In this document: positions 19,170 to 56,465 of the stretch, piece after piece
Layout: each line of letters starts with the position of its first letter
How positions within the stretch are numbered: position 1 is the first letter of the stretch
From: Escherichia coli
GTDB lineage: Bacteria > Pseudomonadota > Gammaproteobacteria > Enterobacterales > Enterobacteriaceae
Assembly (NCBI RefSeq): GCF_003019035.1
Contig: NZ_CP027447.1
Length of the DNA stretch: 64,000 nucleotides
Reading direction: 5' to 3' (one strand)
Made by a program: the position numbers and the translations under genes
Notes under the pieces: generated by a model
Databases searched by the model: none
Told to the model about the DNA's origin: nothing
What the model saw: only the letters and a program-made list of their open reading frames with translations

Positions 19170-20129
19170 ATGAAAATTTGTATCGATGACGGCTCCACCA
19201 ACATCAAGCTGGCATGGACTGAGAACGGCGAACGCCGCAACGCCATCAGCCCGAACAGCTTCAAGTCGGAATGGTCTGCGCCGTTCGGTGGCACGCAGCC
19301 CGCGAACTACATGCTTGATGGCGTGCGCTATGGTTTTGATCCGGTCAGCGATCGCTTTGTCCAGACGACCGACACGCAATACCAGTACAGCGATGTGAAT
19401 GTCATTGCCATTCATCACGCGCTGGTCAAATCAGGCATCACACCACAGGAAGTGGATGTGGTTGTCACCCTGCCACTGAGCGAATATTTCGACACAAACG
19501 CACAGCCGGACATGGCCAACATCAACCGCAAAAAAGCAAACGTCATGCGCCCGGTGGCGTACCAGAACGGAAAAGCATTCACTATCCGTAACGTACGGGT
19601 TATGCCTGAATCCATTCCGGCTGGTTTTAAAGCACTGGCTGACATGAGTCCGTTTGAATCCCTGCTGATTGTGGATTTAGGCGGAACCACGCTGGATGTG
19701 GCAAAGGTTCAGGGACAACTGGCAGGTATCAGCCAGGTGTTTTGCGATCCACACGTAGGCGTTTCCCTGATGGCCGATGCCGTACTGTCGGTGATGGCCA
19801 CTAACGGTATGCGCACCAGTCACCACATCGCCAATACCATTATCGAACATCGCCATGATGAAGCCTGGCTGCGCCAGCACATCCACAATGACGCGCATTA
19901 CGCCAGCCTGATGGCGGTTATTCGTGAAAAGGAAGAAACACTGAAACAACGCGTGATCCGCGCGCTGGCGGTTTTTTCGGGTTACGGGCGGGTGATGGTT
20001 GTCGGTGGCGGGGCGGAGATTGTGGCACCCGCTATCCGCGAAGCCTGCGGAGTTAATGCGACTTTCATCGCGGACGGGGTGCCACAATTTGCTCTGGTTA
20101 ATGGGCTGTACGCAATGAACAAGGAGTAA
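19170..20129 (+). CDS. parM: ParM/StbA actin-like plasmid segregation ATPase
   Basis: 319 aa. ICIDDGSTNIKLAW, YSDVNVIAIHHAL, MPESIPAG, IVDLGGTTLDV and VVGGGAE align colinearly with remembered plasmid R1 ParM. Confidence 0.85.
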   Translation: MKICIDDGSTNIKLAWTENGERRNAISPNSFKSEWSAPFGGTQPANYMLDGVRYGFDPVSDRFVQTTDTQYQYSDVNVIAIHHALVKSGITPQEVDVVVTLPLSEYFDTNAQPDMANINRKKANVMRPVAYQNGKAFTIRNVRVMPESIPAGFKALADMSPFESLLIVDLGGTTLDVAKVQGQLAGISQVFCDPHVGVSLMADAVLSVMATNGMRTSHHIANTIIEHRHDEAWLRQHIHNDAHYASLMAVIREKEETLKQRVIRALAVFSGYGRVMVVGGGAEIVAPAIREACGVNATFIADGVPQFALVNGLYAMNKE

Positions 20130-20133
20130 ACCA

Positions 20134-20445
20134 ATGACGACACCAACCAGAAGAATAAGTTTCTATCTGAAGCCAGCTGCCGTCAAGAACGAAGGAGAAG
20201 CATGCGCCTGGCTGGACAGTCTTACACCAGAAGCCCGCAAAAGCGGCCAACGCGTGGCTTTTCTGGCCGGGCTGGCACTTCTGAAGACGAATCCGGCAGA
20301 GGCTTACCGACTGGCCGCATGGGCTGATGATGAGATGTTACCTGTGACACAAATCAGCTCAAAAAAGTTTGAAGCACAGTCTGCACCAGTGGCTAAGATA
20401 ACCAGCCAGATGGCTGGGAATATCCGGGCGTTATTTCCTGAGTAA
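20134..20445 (+). CDS. parR: ParR-like centromere-binding adaptor
   Basis: 103 aa. RRISFYLKP...LDSLTPEARKSGQRVAFLAGLALLKTNP parallels the R1 ParR N-terminal RHH region. Lies immediately downstream of parM. Confidence 0.7.
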   Translation: MTTPTRRISFYLKPAAVKNEGEACAWLDSLTPEARKSGQRVAFLAGLALLKTNPAEAYRLAAWADDEMLPVTQISSKKFEAQSAPVAKITSQMAGNIRALFPE

Positions 20446-20515
20446 AAGCATCTGCGCGAAAAATGCTCACGTTTATAGAGACAGTATCATTCCATTTGGC
20501 ACACTTACTTCAATA

Positions 20516-20602
20516 ATCGATCTGTTAAACAAATAGATTGTCTATTATCTATCGATTAAAACGATCAATTATCTTGACAGTAATGTGCCTTTTTGTAAGA
20601 TC
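20516..20602 (+). promoter_or_regulatory. GATC-rich operator-like module plus sigma70-like promoter reading rightward
   Basis: ATCGATCTGTTA (20516-20527) and ATCGATTAAAACGATCAAT (20551-20569). TTGACA (20574-20579), 16 nt, TAAGAT (20596-20601). Three GATC sites at 20519, 20563 and 20599; the last overlaps the -10. Both motifs recur at 45754-45804. Confidence 0.5.
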
Positions 20603-20809
20603 GTTCGCATTGTGAGCGACAAGATAATTGCGCGGCATTGTCCATGCAAAACGCCCCAATAGCAGCAACTATTGGGGCGTAAAACTCGGTCGGACTCACT
20701 TAACCTGATATGCGTGCCTTCCGAAGTAAATCAAAATGTGCGTCGTATATTTTATTGCTTACACGCACCTCTGTAAAGGCACGCATATTTTTCCTATGAG
20801 GTAAATAAA

Positions 20810-21079
20810 GTGCGGGCTAAAACAGGTATTTGCAAGAACCCTCATCGTTATAATCCAACATTTCTGTCTCTCCCTGAATATCAAGGACAAGAAGGTCGGC
20901 ACAAATGCGCTGCCTGTGCTTTTGAGCTAGGCATAAAAGATGCGCTTGAAGGACGCGCTATGGCTCAGAATGATTTAGTTTTAGCTAACATTCCGTTTAG
21001 CCAGGCTGGAACTGTAAGGCACAGAGATGCCTATGAAGCATATGTTCGTGGTTGGCGATTAATACACAGCAACAATTGA
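20810..21079 (+). CDS. Hypothetical 89-aa moron protein
   Basis: GTG start 9 nt after GAGG. It has its own promoter region and a strong terminator. Contains HKCAACAFELG. Family not recognised. Confidence 0.5.
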   Translation: MRAKTGICKNPHRYNPTFLSLPEYQGQEGRHKCAACAFELGIKDALEGRAMAQNDLVLANIPFSQAGTVRHRDAYEAYVRGWRLIHSNN

Positions 21080-44999: not shown

Positions 45000-45260
45000 A
45001 TGTTCCGTTGTCCGCTTTGTGGCGCATCTGCCCGTATCCGCACCAGTCGTCCGGAAAATGATTCAAACACCGTGCGGCAAAAGTATTACCAGTGTAACAA
45101 TCTGGAATGCGGCGTATGCTTCTCAACACTGGAAGCTTTCCATAAATTCACATCAAAACACGCCTCCGGCGTTCACTCTTCAGAAGATATCCCGTGGCAT
45201 GATCTGCCAGCTTCACACAGGGGAAACAATCAGATGAGTTTGCCTTTATCTCAGAATTAA
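45000..45260 (+). CDS. ogr: Ogr/Delta-family zinc-finger late transcription activator
   Basis: MFRCPLCGASARIRTSR...YYQCNNLECGVCF has the CxxC...CxxxxC pattern, like P2 Ogr. Confidence 0.88.
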   Translation: MFRCPLCGASARIRTSRPENDSNTVRQKYYQCNNLECGVCFSTLEAFHKFTSKHASGVHSSEDIPWHDLPASHRGNNQMSLPLSQN

Positions 45261-45269
45261 CAGGCAGAA

Positions 45270-45298
45270 TTGCCGGAGTAACAAAAAAGCGATAGATT
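45270..45298 (+). promoter_or_regulatory. Candidate promoter of the hok-like mRNA
   Basis: TTGCCG, 17 nt, TAGATT. The predicted start near 45305 coincides with GGGTGCC, which pairs with the 3' end of the transcript. Confidence 0.45.
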
Positions 45299-45451
45299 AC
45301 GCGCGGGTGCCTTTCGGCTGATGGTCGGAGGGAATACCCGAAGGCCAGATGTGGAAAGGCCCCGGAAAACATCTCTGTTTAACCGAGGCCCTAACATATC
45401 TACCTTAAGCAAGTGATAGGTTAGCGCCTCTCCAACAAAGGAGCAAGCGCT

Positions 45452-45592
45452 ATGTCGCAAAAATCGCTTACGGCCATCACGTTCTGCGTGACGGTAATCC
45501 TCATCATCTGGATGCTGCACGGTTCGCTGTGTGAAATACGGATGAGCTTCTGGGGAGCGGAGTTTGCGGCGTTCTTACAGTGTAAGCAGTAA
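45452..45592 (+). CDS. Hok/Gef-family type I toxin (46 aa; not in ORF track)
   Basis: MSQKSLTAITFCVTVILIIWMLHGSLCEIRMSFWGAEFAAFLQCKQ. An N-terminal TM is followed by the SLCEIR...E(F/V)AAF signature of Hok (compare R1 Hok ...[22 protein letters not shown]). SD AAGGAG. Confidence 0.75.
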   Translation: MSQKSLTAITFCVTVILIIWMLHGSLCEIRMSFWGAEFAAFLQCKQ

Positions 45593-45677
45593 GGAAACCG
45601 CGACGGGGGAGCAATCCCCCGTCAATCGGTTGCTAAGGTTGGCTGAAGTGGCACCCTATCTCTCAGACATGAACAAC

Positions 45678-45712
45678 AAACCCGCAGCGTAAAAACTGCG
45701 GGTTTTCTTTTT
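45678..45712 (+). terminator. Rho-independent terminator of the hok-like mRNA
   Basis: AAACCCGCAG-cgtaaaaa-CTGCGGGTTT followed by TCTTTTT. Confidence 0.8.
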
Positions 45713-45753
45713 GCTACCCTCACAAATGAGGGCACCATACATAAGCAATAGGC

Positions 45754-45807
45754 ATAACAGATCGATGCAATAAATCCGATCGATAAAAACGATCGATTTG
45801 TTATCAT
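45754..45807 (+). promoter_or_regulatory. Triple-GATC operator-like module and weak promoter upstream of com
   Basis: ATAACAGATCGAT (45754-45766) and ATCGATTTGTTAT (45792-45804) form a 13-bp inverted repeat. ATCGATAAAAACGATCGAT lies at 45779-45797. GATC sites at 45760, 45778 and 45791. A TATCAT -10 candidate (45802-45807) has a poor -35. Confidence 0.5.
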
Positions 45808-45841
45808 ATCGGCAGCAGTAACCACACAAGAGGTGCCGCAA

Positions 45842-46039
45842 ATGACGCAAAATGTACGATGCAAAAATTGCAACAAACTACTTGCCCGCGCCTCATTTCA
45901 CTACATTGAAATAAAATGTCCGCGCTGCAAAACACTTAACCAGATAACGAGAGCCATCGAGCACCCCACACACATGAGGAGTTATGACCGTGGGGATCGC
46001 AATCCAGCACCAACCAGCACATACACCGGAACACACTAA
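45842..46039 (+). CDS. com: Mu Com-like zinc-finger translational activator
   Basis: MTQNVRCKNCNKLLARASFHYIEIKCPRCKTLNQITRAIEHPT compares with remembered Mu Com MKSIRCKNCNKLLFKADSFDHIEIRCPRCKRHIIMLNACEHPT. Its 3' end overlaps the next gene out of frame. Confidence 0.8.
   Translation: MTQNVRCKNCNKLLARASFHYIEIKCPRCKTLNQITRAIEHPTHMRSYDRGDRNPAPTSTYTGTH
45964..45995 (+). promoter_or_regulatory. Stem-loop sequestering the methyltransferase SD and start codon
   Basis: CCCCAC (45964-45969) pairs with GTGGGG (45990-45995), enclosing GAGGAG and the ATG at 45984. This is analogous to the Com-regulated mom translation-initiation hairpin. Confidence 0.45.
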
Positions 46040-46775
46040 GGTTTATCAGACTGACAATGCCACGCTCTGTCGTGGGAATGCGCTGGAAATATTGCCGCTG
46101 ATTGAGCCAGAAAGTATTGATGCCTTAATCACTGACCCGCCTTACAGTTCGGGCGCGACACACAAGGCCGGACGCACCAACCAGGGCAGCCACGCAAAAT
46201 ATCTGAACGGCGAGAACCTTCATCGCTTTGATGGGTTTGCGGGTGAAAACATGGATGCCCGTTCGTGGGCTTACTGGACACAATTATGGATGGCACAGGC
46301 ACACCGCGCAGTCAGGCCGGGCGGTTATGCCCTGGTATTTACTGACTGGCGACAACTGCCAGCTTTAACCGATGCGTTTCAGGCCAGCGGTTTTACATGG
46401 CGTGGAATCATTGCGTGGAACAAAGGAAGGGGGTCACGAACACCCCATACGGGGTATTTCCGGCATCAGTGCGAATACATCGTCTGGGGCAGTAAAGGCC
46501 ATTTAGGTAAATCGCCTTCGGGACCGTTCGACGGCTGCATGACGTTCCCGGTTATCCCATCAAAGAAAATGCACCCGACCGGAAAACCAGAAGAACTTAT
46601 GGCAGAACTGGTCAGGACTGCGAATAGTGGTGGAACAGTCCTTGATCCTTTTATGGGATCGGGAACAACGGGTGTTGCAGCACTGAAAGCAGGACGCAAA
46701 TTTATTGGTATAGAAACCAGTGATCATTATTTTGATGTAGCAACACAACGGCTCAAAACGGCGATCGAACCATAA
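45984..46775 (+). CDS. Orphan beta-class amino-DNA methyltransferase (N6A/N4C; DPPY)
   Basis: 263 aa. Motif IV (LITDPPYSSG) lies near the N-terminus and motif I (VLDPFMGSGTTGVAA) near the C-terminus. No adjacent restriction gene. Confidence 0.85.
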   Translation: MTVGIAIQHQPAHTPEHTKVYQTDNATLCRGNALEILPLIEPESIDALITDPPYSSGATHKAGRTNQGSHAKYLNGENLHRFDGFAGENMDARSWAYWTQLWMAQAHRAVRPGGYALVFTDWRQLPALTDAFQASGFTWRGIIAWNKGRGSRTPHTGYFRHQCEYIVWGSKGHLGKSPSGPFDGCMTFPVIPSKKMHPTGKPEELMAELVRTANSGGTVLDPFMGSGTTGVAALKAGRKFIGIETSDHYFDVATQRLKTAIEP

Positions 46776-46778
46776 GAC

Positions 46779-46800
46779 AAAGCCCGCAATGTTGCGGGCT
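46779..46800 (+). terminator. Hairpin terminator after the methyltransferase gene
   Basis: AAGCCCGCAA-tg-TTGCGGGCTT. Confidence 0.6.
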
Positions 46801-46819
46801 TACTCTACCTCTCGAAAAT

Positions 46820-46837
46820 GTGGTCACTGCGTGGACA
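46820..46837. promoter_or_regulatory. Putative Int arm-type binding repeats (P arm)
   Basis: GTGGTCAC-TGC-GTGGACAT matches 11133-11150 at 17 of 18 positions. Confidence 0.5.
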
Positions 46838-46883
46838 TACGCTGATACAAATCCTTTTATATCAAGAAATTAAATCTTTGTTT

Positions 46884-46903
46884 TTTTCATCAACAAGGAT
46901 TTT
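46884..46903. repeat. attR core (20 bp)
   Basis: Identical to 10921-10940. On the minus strand it is followed upstream by GTG (46904-46906), the stranded native pdxB start codon. Confidence 0.85.
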
Positions 46904-47004
46904 CACGTTTGTGTTACCTGTATGAGACGAGAGTTAACCGGACAAGTGTGCCATAATCTCGCGGCCAGGCATACTTGCGAAGATTTCAGGTATAAGGATA
47001 CGTA

Positions 47005-49178
<2,174 letters not shown>

Positions 49179-55379: not shown

Positions 55380-56465
55380 TTACCAGCGTGGAATATCAGT
55401 CTTCACATCGGCATTTTGCGCCCGTTGCCGTAACAGGTGATCCATTAAAACGATCGCTAGCATCGCTTCCGCGATCGGCACCGCGCGGATCCCAACACAA
55501 GGATCGTGACGACCTTTGGTGATCATCTCAACTTCTTCGCCAAAGCGGTTAATGGTGCGCCCCGGCACGGTAATACTGGAGGTTGGCTTCAGCGCCATAT
55601 GGGCAATGATTTGCTGCCCGCTGCTGATACCGCCAAGAATGCCGCCCGCATGGTTGCTCTGGAATCCGTCTTTGGTGATTTCGTCGCGGTTCTGGCTGCC
55701 ACGCAGCGCTACCACGTCAAAACCATCACCAATTTCTACGCCTTTCACCGCGTTGATGCTCATCAGCGCATGGGCGATGTCGGCATCCAGGCGATCAAAG
55801 ACCGGCTCGCCAAGTCCGGCGGGGACGCCACTGGCAACAACGGTGACTTTCGCGCCGATGGAGTCGCCCTCTTTTTTCAGCGCGCGCATCAGTTCATCTA
55901 ACGCGTCGATTTTGTCCGGGTCCGGGCAGAAAAACGGATTTTGCTCGACCTGCGACCAGTCTTTGATTTCCAGCGGAATGTCACCCATCTGGGTCAGGCA
56001 GCCGCGGATTTCAATACCAAATTTCTCGGCGAGATATTTTTTGGCAATCGCCCCTGCCGCCACGCGCATGGCGGTTTCTCGGGCGGAAGAGCGCCCGCCG
56101 CCGCGATAATCGCGCAGGCCGTATTTTTGTTCGTAAGTGTAATCGGCATGACCTGGACGGAAAACGTCCTTAATCGCACTATAATCCTGAGAACGCTGGT
56201 CGGTATTTTCGATCAACAAACCGATGCTGGTGCCGGTAGTAACACCTTCAAAAACACCGGAGAGAATTTTGACCTGATCCGGCTCACGGCGCTGGGTGGT
56301 ATAGCGCGATGTCCCAGGGCGACGACGATCAAGGTCATGTTGCAGGTCCGCTTCCGTCAGCGGAATGCCTGGCGGAACACCATCGACGATGCAGCCGAGC
56401 GCCAGCCCGTGCGATTCGCCGAAGGTGGTTACGCGAAAGAGTTGTCCAATTGTGTTTCCAGCCAT
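55380..56465 (-). CDS. aroC: Chorismate synthase
   Basis: [20 protein letters not shown], 361 aa. Confidence 0.95.

Follow-up and report, generated by a model that had tools for sequence, protein, structure and literature searches.

Does the control of the mom gene in bacteriophage Mu belong to Mu alone, or does it also govern other DNA-modifying enzymes in other phages? The question is raised by a P2-like prophage of Escherichia coli (assembly GCF_003019035.1, contig NZ_CP027447.1), at whose right end a small gene, com, overlaps the gene of an orphan DNA methyltransferase. We analysed a stretch of 64,000 nucleotides of this contig, which we call the window and number from its first letter. 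An earlier note on this DNA had read positions 45754-46775 as a Mu mom-style circuit, and that core reading is supported: the operator, com, the RNA site for Com and the hairpin over the start codon are all homologous, position for position, to their counterparts in Mu. Judged from the sequence, the resemblance to Mu com-mom is one of homology, not analogy. We give a probability of roughly 0.72 to the fuller reading, namely that a portable com control cassette has been fused to an orphan methyltransferase with a DPPY motif, with a double gate of Dam/OxyR and Com, for the protection of phage DNA against restriction.

The com gene and its overlap with the methyltransferase gene

The com gene lies on the plus strand at 45842..46039, behind a Shine-Dalgarno (SD) sequence, AAGAGG, at 45828-33, and encodes a predicted translational activator of 65 aa with a CCCC zinc ribbon. 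That this open reading frame (ORF) is a Com homologue, as had been proposed, is confirmed by its match to PF10122 (Zn_ribbon_Com; E 9.5e-12, 44.6 bits against a cutoff of 22.9). The zinc ribbon, CxxC-N16-CxxC, is N-terminal and homologous to that of Mu Com; the two proteins are 60% identical over 42 aa, and Cys 7/10/27/30 of the window protein align with Cys 6/9/26/29 of the Mu protein. Please note that RefSeq names the window protein (WP_001353016.1) a “DNA-binding transcriptional regulator,” which conflicts with the experimental literature, where Com is an RNA-binding translational activator.

The 3' end of com overlaps the downstream ORF (45984-46775) by 56 nt, much as the earlier note had described; with the in-frame GTG at 45990 taken as the start, the shared stretch is 50 nt, as in Mu. 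How common is such an arrangement? We scanned one genome per species and kept 80 Com loci. In most of the 64 loci with a called downstream ORF, com stands immediately 5' of a DNA-modification gene and usually overlaps it.

The Com site, the hairpin, and the start codon

Com is known to bind CC(N)2-3GAG in the loop of a hairpin that stands beside an inhibitory structure (Nowacka et al. 2019; PMC6483171). The same study derived a bipartite motif, NGAGNNCC(N)2-3GAGNNCCNN, by systematic evolution of ligands by exponential enrichment (SELEX), and gave the Mu target as GAAUGCCUGCGAGCAUCCCACGGAG. The predicted Com RNA-binding site of the window, GAGAGCCAUCGAGCACC (45949..45965, plus strand), fits the bipartite SELEX form GAGNNCC(N)3GAGNNCC exactly and contains CC-AUC-GAG. 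It is the sole match with 0 mismatches to the bipartite motif in 64 kb, it is kept in the relatives, and its last 2 nt belong to the 5' arm of the hairpin. Among the 32 Com loci examined for it, 30 have CC(N)2-3GAG at the equivalent place (one is without the motif and one could not be scored), and the motif is present also in Haemophilus loci (L053, L073) where com ends before the site.

Directly after the Com site comes the predicted translation-inhibition hairpin (45964..45995, plus strand). The stem reported earlier, CCCCAC (45964-45969) with GTGGGG (45990-45995) around GAGGAG (45976-81) and the ATG at 45984, is indeed present. In the predicted fold this outer stem, CCCCAC/GUGGGG, encloses an inner 5-bp stem, CAUGA/UUAUG, and part of the SD (GGAG) stands in the apical loop. 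Both candidate starts, AUG 45984 and GUG 45990, would be paired, the AUG by the inner helix. The 54-nt hairpin core folds at -16 kcal/mol (z -2.74), and 2 of 200 shuffled sequences did as well. Comparison with the relatives from E. coli, Salmonella, Yersinia, and Citrobacter shows no change in the arms, whereas the loop sequence differs among them. Rfam has no family over the Com site or the hairpin; its sole match here is a sub-threshold sok upstream.

The likeness to Mu continues down to the encoded residues. In both the window and Mu, com encodes ...EHPT directly before the hairpin; after these codons Mu reads CCCAC-GGAGAAACAUU-GUGGG, and the window CCCCAC, 20 nt with GAGGAG, and GUGGGG. 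The CCCAC/GUGGG pair of Mu is the published translation-inhibition structure, with the GUG start of mom in the stem (PMC6483171).

Which start codon does the methyltransferase use? The in-frame GUG at 45990 lies in the 3' arm of the hairpin, 8 nt past the SD, and the AUG at 45984 stands only 2 nt past it; the Citrobacter cassette has a GUG start only. Because of this SD spacing, the 50-nt overlap shared with Mu, and the Citrobacter case, GUG 45990 is the likelier start of the enzyme, a difference of two residues from the AUG.

Pairing of the cargo start codon is not confined to the window. It is seen in the minimum-free-energy folds of 23 of 29 Com loci, and at 17 of the 29 the partner is the neighbourhood of the Com site, against 4.8 +/- 2.05 (maximum 10) in shuffles that held motif and start codon fixed; some loci are related, so these counts are not fully independent. 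The pairing arms themselves vary from locus to locus, for example GCCAUGAG/CUCAUGGC, GCCACGAG/CUCGUGGC, and GGCCAU/AUGGCC.

The operator

Upstream of com lies a Dam/OxyR-type operator (45757..45797, plus strand) with three GATCs, at 45760-63, 45778-81, and 45791-94, spaced 18 and 13 bp apart. It was right to count exactly three sites within 35 bp here (45760, 45778, 45791); each is part of a GATCGAT. Clustering of GATC is by itself not rare, as the 64 kb hold 202 such sites and further triplets occur at several places. The GATC triplet and the hairpin are each statistically unstriking alone; their evidential weight comes from comparison with other sequences. The Mu mom operator has exactly this 18/13 spacing, and the operator core (38-39 nt) is 76% identical to Mu and 67% identical to agn43 of E. 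coli K-12.

The operator is bracketed by a 13-nt inverted repeat, ATAACAGATCGAT (45754-45766) and ATCGATTTGTTAT (45792-45804); the earlier claim of such a repeat around the GATC block stands, with arms that are 92% complementary. Two stretches resemble the OxyR dimer consensus. The better one, ATCGATAAAAACGAT at 45779-45793, agrees at 8/10 specified positions and is flanked by GATC 2 and 3; the other, ACAGATCGATGCAAT at 45757-45771, agrees at 7/10 as read by eye and lies 22 bp, or one helical repeat, upstream of ATCGATAAAAACGAT. From homology with Mu mom and agn43, we infer that OxyR would bind the unmethylated operator only, and repress.

The 18/13 triplet also precedes com in Escherichia phage Chuche, in the methyltransferase loci of Salmonella (L005) and Yersinia (L086), and in an enterobacterial locus that carries Mom (L010), and the com operator of Citrobacter braakii (L007) keeps GATC 2 and 3. 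The triplet occurs in none of the approximately 55 non-enterobacterial Com loci, the sampled Haemophilus loci included. The regulatory region of K-12 agn43 has three GATCs as well, spaced 19/13, and the Citrobacter com operator matches it at 22/23 positions across GATC II-III, GATCGTTT(T/A)TATCGATCGATAAG. The agn43 sequence compared lies upstream of K-12 flu/agn43 (L091, 210-275), and agn43 itself is in the cryptic prophage CP4-44.

One further locus requires comment. A contig labelled Vagococcus sp. WN89Y carries at 2430-2470 an E. coli-type cassette with a Com 92% identical to that of the window, which suggests contamination or misassignment of the contig. This cassette (L006) has lost 31 bp between the first GATCGAT and the third; the deletion removes two GATCs and the predicted -35, and we attribute it to recombination between the GATCGAT copies. 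None of 5426 complete E. coli genomes has the deletion variant.

The promoter and the question of timing

The only promoter-like or consensus site within 45250-47050 is a predicted sigma-70 promoter of com at 45780..45807 (plus strand), composed of a -35 TCGATA (45780-85), a 16-nt spacer, and an extended -10 TGtTATCAT (45799-45807). The GATC sites had been placed upstream of the promoter, and this is not supported: the predicted promoter overlaps GATC 2, which falls within the -35 hexamer, and GATC 3, which falls within the spacer. The geometry is kept in the Citrobacter relative, and the GATCs are thus probably not upstream of the promoter. Likewise, the -10 stands 11 nt past GATC 3 in Chuche, Salmonella, Yersinia, and Citrobacter, where it reads TATACT in the last.

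The Mu operator stands upstream of its promoter, which is weak (ACCACA / 19 nt / TAAGAT) and requires the late activator C, and it is from C that the late timing of mom derives. The window operator is 27 bp nearer com than the Mu operator, and the ACCACA / 19-nt / TAAGAT arrangement could not be placed between GATC 3 and com, a stretch 27 nt shorter than in Mu. A Mu-type C-dependent promoter that takes the shared TAACCACAC as its -35 was also considered and is ruled out, since TAACCACAC, although common to Mu and the window, abuts the SD of com and so cannot be a -35 element. The annotation of the near-identical prophage in E. coli FDAARGOS_1303 includes no Mor/C gene. An Ogr-activated late promoter of the P2 kind was rejected too, there being no TGT-N12-ACA box upstream of com. 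The description of the enzyme as late-expressed, with neither a C-dependent arrangement nor an Ogr-type box to uphold it, is not borne out; because no activator site of either type was found, late expression is an assumption without an identified basis.

A possible second operator

The earlier note had also proposed that the operator is shared with a promoter at 20516-20602, in the variable A-Q region, which separates replication gene A from portal gene Q. One half of this claim stands, in that the segment is the best match to the com operator in the window: it is identical at 18/20 positions, ATCGATtAAAACGATCaATT, with a score of 30-31 against 26 for the next best, and 0/500 shuffles reach it. 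The other half is not supported, as the segment has one OxyR-like half-site and only 1/3 GATCs in register. The half-site, ATCGATTAAAACGAT (20551-65), the same as at com, is just upstream of a TTGACA/TAAGAT promoter, and the segment as a whole is preceded by a ParM/ParR-like pair and followed by an 89-aa ORF. A common regulator of the two sites is plausible from these likenesses; a common Dam-sensitive switch is not shown.

Several observations on this neighbourhood may be recorded here. The promoter, found within 20505-20625, is strong (TTGACA / 16 nt / TAAGAT) and has the -10 hexamer of Mu Pmom; it precedes a long leader and the 89-aa hypothetical ORF (20810-21079). The 20505-20625 stretch resembles the agn43 leader as well (aaaacGATCaat..., ...cagtaa...). 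The pair upstream, at 19170-20445 in the A-Q variable region, is of the plasmid-partition type (ParM-like, 319 aa; ParR-like, 103 aa). The FDAARGOS_1303 prophage, which is otherwise near-identical, has extra minus-strand genes in the same region, which marks the window as DNA of a different strain.

The methyltransferase

The regulated gene (45984..46775, plus strand) encodes an orphan amino-methyltransferase of 263 aa that matches PF01555 with E 3.5e-33. Its assignment to the beta class is sound, since motif IV (DPPY, aa 51-54) comes before motif I (FMGSG, aa 223-227). The DPPY form of motif IV argues for N6-adenine as the target. There is, as previously stated, no cognate nuclease adjacent to the gene, its neighbours being ogr, hok, and com upstream and host flk downstream, and the surroundings of the enzyme are equally free of nucleases in Yersinia and Chuche. 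The first 24 aa form a leader that arises from the com overlap and stands outside the catalytic homology; similarity to homologues that have no com begins at residue 25.

Homologues are abundant, more than 7000 at E <= 1e-10. The Yersinia enzyme (L086) is 73% identical to that of the window. Relatives that are 54-62% identical and without com occur in the late/lysis regions of Mu-like prophages in Salmonella (L088/L089) and E. coli (L090), and further homologues are found in many Burkholderia, Ralstonia, Bordetella, and actinobacterial phages. One of the com-less homologues is between a holin-like gene and a lysozyme gene, and another is between DUF1804 and the terminase/portal genes. Other phages, then, evidently express this family as an ordinary late gene.

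What does the enzyme methylate? Its relatives in the Protein Data Bank, all of low similarity, include a DpnA-annotated enzyme, CcrM, MboIIA, RsrI, and N4-cytosine enzymes; a specificity cannot be transferred from them, as they are differently named enzymes and all too distant. In the literature we found no methylation motif assigned to the window enzyme or to its P2-like prophage. M.EcoMIV, a prophage enzyme of ST131, comes from the lineage of JJ1886, and the com cassette is absent from the sister strain JJ1887.

What com controls elsewhere

From the Com survey, we took the ORF directly downstream of com in 59 cases, the window among them, and classified these ORFs by Pfam at 1e-5. The largest class is the D12/Dam-like methyltransferases (PF02086), with 32/59, followed by the PF01555 methyltransferases (6/59), the C5 methyltransferases (PF00145; 3/59), and Mom itself (PF25680; 2/59). 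A tRNA synthetase (1/59) is a probable false neighbour, and the remaining 15/59 have no Pfam match at this threshold. It had been presented as unusual that a methyltransferase should stand here instead of Mom. In fact this is the rule for Com: DNA methyltransferases account for 41/59 cargos against 2/59 for Mom, and such pairs are already in the literature and in annotations. Control of phage DNA-modifying enzymes by com is common, documented, and already known.

Three features appear to be undescribed. The first is that the exact three-GATC operator of the Mu/agn43 type is kept in a P2-like version. The second is the overlap of the operator with the core promoter where no C-type activator site is present. 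The third is a precise cassette boundary at the start codon: the cassettes of the window, of Yersinia (with a beta-class methyltransferase), and of Citrobacter (with a C5 methyltransferase) can be aligned as far as GTGGGGA, beyond which they diverge at once, although the window and Citrobacter cargos are unrelated enzymes. From the end of the shared stretch at GTGGGGA, together with the start of enzyme homology at residue 25, it follows that the cassette is exchanged as a single unit, with its end at the start codon.

Mu mom control is therefore not a peculiarity of Mu but a movable cassette of operator, promoter, com, Com site, hairpin, and start codon, which unrelated types of enterobacterial phage attach to Mom, to a beta-class N6-methyladenine (m6A) methyltransferase, or to a C5 methyltransferase. 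The version seen here is carried by approximately 3% of complete E. coli genomes (163 to 171/5426): 163/5426 have 80% or more of the cassette, and 171/5426 an intact operator region. The window methyltransferase is uncharacterised, and its contribution to E. coli methylomes and to the escape of phages from restriction is probably a silent one. The practical value is modest: a candidate anti-restriction or broad-specificity methyltransferase, and a natural test bed for phase variation of mom-type operators.

How the circuit may work, and the alternatives

By homology with Mu and agn43, OxyR would bind the operator while its GATCs are unmethylated and block the -35 region, and full Dam methylation would exclude OxyR and permit transcription from the embedded sigma-70 promoter. 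The bicistronic mRNA would yield Com first, with the ribosome-binding site and start of the methyltransferase locked, according to the predicted fold, in the hairpin. Acting as it does in Mu, Com would then bind CC-AUC-GAG just 5' of the hairpin and open it, and translation of the methyltransferase would start, most likely at GUG 45990. The enzyme may methylate adenines of the replicating phage DNA and so protect the progeny from restriction once they enter the next host. A double gate would be needed because uncontrolled expression is presumably harmful, or at least costly, to the lysogen.

It is important to consider what weighs against this scheme. The stability of the hairpin is only moderately unusual, with z from -1.6 (101 nt) to -2.7 (54 nt), and the OxyR half-site consensus has 13 matches window-wide against 12.4 expected, which is no excess over chance. 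The closest solved relatives of the enzyme are site-specific. Timing is unexplained without a late-activator site, and a promoter whose GATCs are methylated might be on in lysogens. When the Com site was forced to be single-stranded in silico, the fold went from -18.6 to -12.0 kcal/mol with the hairpin partly intact, and accessibility from the SD to the start was unchanged, in the window and Mu alike, so that this forced-open fold neither helps nor hurts the model. Finally, the hairpin lies within com, so that ribosomes translating com could open it without any binding of Com.

The alternative that survives best is that the operator acts in lysogens as a toggle of the agn43/gtr kind. OxyR occupancy and Dam methylation would be heritable states, and com and the methyltransferase would be ON in one subpopulation and OFF in another, giving a phase-variable methylome or a form of bet-hedging. 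The 67% identity with the agn43 operator, the 22/23 positions shared by agn43 and the Citrobacter com operator, the overlap of the operator with the core promoter, as in agn43 and gtr, and the failure to find an activator site for the com promoter all point this way, and Broadbent et al. (2010; PMC2909390) state that whether mom phase-varies is not known. However, the same operator in Mu is not known to phase-vary, those Com-associated methyltransferases that have been tested proved silent in the host (PMC3299994), and the toggle needs a finely balanced OxyR affinity of a kind that cannot be read from sequence. We regard it as unlikely, if worth keeping in mind. Were it true, E. coli would have a methylome made phase-variable by Dam and OxyR, a second adenine methyltransferase would be active in some cells, and the Com hairpin would serve as a noise filter. 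In a bolder extension, the cargo enzyme would methylate its own operator and so lock the ON state.

Translational coupling is a poorer candidate again, and we give it little credence. Ribosomes on the 3' tail of com would unwind the hairpin and re-initiate, and Com would be dispensable or have another role. The hairpin (45964-45995) is wholly upstream of the com stop at 46039, as this would require, and masking of the Com site in constraint folding gave no full opening. Ribosome transit offers no explanation, however, for a Com motif that is kept in nearly all loci, even those in which com ends before the site (L053, L073), and there are published data on Com-RNA binding for the Mu site (PMC6483171). 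That Com is instead a DNA-binding transcriptional regulator acting on the inverted repeat or the GATC block, the hairpin being incidental, agrees with the RefSeq product name and with the repeat that brackets the operator, but the literature shows RNA binding and translational activation (PMC3299994, PMC6483171), the repeat is not kept in the Mu or Citrobacter operators, and start-codon pairing is family-wide, all of which makes it very improbable. We return to the double gate of Dam/OxyR and Com as the preferred account of the cassette.

The prophage and its surroundings

The P2-like prophage lies between host pdxB and flk. Its genes run from an integrase at approximately 11.5 kb through replication gene A, portal/terminase, capsid, lysis, and tail genes, to gpD and ogr (45000-45260); the right end comprises ogr, a hok/sok-type module, com, and the methyltransferase, after which comes host flk (47005-48000). 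Over 45600-46900, the window matches E. coli FDAARGOS_1303 at 100% identity and phage Chuche at 96.9%, which marks the latter as the same element. In RefSeq the com product is called “Com family DNA-binding transcriptional regulator” and the enzyme “DNA-methyltransferase,” and the Chuche record has “gpCom control of modification” and “DNA methyltransferase.”

The module between ogr and com (45305-45592) resembles a type I toxin-antitoxin system of the hok/sok type. It has an Rfam sok match at 45305-45462 (47 bits, under the gathering score of 59) and a Hok/Gef-like ORF of 46 aa at 45452-45592, and it is followed by a bidirectional terminator at 45678-45705. The order hok-com-methyltransferase recurs in Yersinia kristensenii (L086) and in phage Chuche. 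Where the prophage meets the host DNA before flk, the methyltransferase stop is followed at once by a G+C-rich hairpin (46780..46801) with a terminator-like score on the minus strand only; on the plus strand it has no T-run. Downstream of the prophage, in the host region, is the densest GATC cluster of the window, five sites/83 bp at 55439-55521, by collinearity near the mepA/aroC junction.

Comparison with known systems

How, then, does this locus compare with those already described? Mu com-mom (NC_000929, 35768-36602) is the closest in design. It has the same three GATCs spaced 18/13 in an OxyR-type operator, the same CCCC zinc-finger Com, a CC(N)3GAG site directly 5' of a CCCAC/GUGGG hairpin with a GUG start, the 50-nt overlap, and an accessory position at the genome end. 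It differs in its cargo, Mom (PF25680) where the window has a PF01555 methyltransferase, in being transposable where the window prophage is P2-like, and in its weak C-activated promoter; in the window the operator comes 27 bp nearer to com and shares sequence with the predicted promoter.

The nearest precedent for the cargo is that of Drozdz et al. (2012; PMC3299994), who described Hia5, Hin1523, and Nma1821 of Mu-like prophages, each preceded by com, as hyperactive, non-specific m6A methyltransferases that confer resistance to restriction and are silent in their hosts; they proposed Com-type control, and they cite ORF47/48 of phage B3. Common to these loci and the window is a com homologue followed by an orphan DPPY m6A methyltransferase in the position of mom. 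The enzymes themselves differ, as the authors aligned theirs to the Dam-type M1.DpnII and EcoKDam (PMC3299994), whereas the window enzyme is of the beta class (PF01555). The com cargo of an H. influenzae locus (L053), which is Hia5/Hin1523-like, groups with the D12-class (PF02086) majority and not with the window enzyme, to which it has no phmmer match; the window enzyme may nonetheless act as non-specifically as they do. The sampled Haemophilus com loci, unlike the window, are without the three-GATC operator.

P2-like phages with com and a PF01555 methyltransferase include Chuche, Burkholderia phage KS5, and Stenotrophomonas phage Smp131, all three so annotated. In KS5, gp21, a “Com translational regulator,” overlaps gp20, an N4/N6 methylase (Lynch et al. 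2010; PMC3091744), and RefSeq has a “translational regulator” beside the homologous methyltransferase of Smp131. KS5 differs in that the pair lies between tail genes, and the parts of the KS5 paper available to us (PMC3091744) contain no regulatory analysis of it. Another comparison is with M.EcoGII/M.EcoGI (PMC5778455), a prophage-borne beta-class m6A methyltransferase that is silent in the lysogen and harmful when overexpressed. We rejected orthology, as that enzyme is of 349 aa against 263 aa and com is unmentioned in PMC5778455; the two are thus set apart by description, not by sequence.

The operator has its own relatives outside the com loci. The OxyR half-sites of P22 gtr (ATAGxTxxxAxCTAT) contain GATC pairs 13 bp apart, and methylation-sensitive binding of OxyR and phase variation were reported there (Broadbent et al. 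2010; PMC2909390). Both agn43 and gtr share with the window OxyR sites that contain GATCs (three of them in agn43), an operator laid over the promoter region, and a prophage-borne accessory gene. They differ in having no Com or translational layer and in their cargo, a surface protein or O-antigen modification, and phase variation has been demonstrated in them, with methylation-sensitive OxyR binding published for agn43 as well as gtr. From the sequence likeness of these operators, the agn43 switch may share its ancestry with the com/mom control region of phages.

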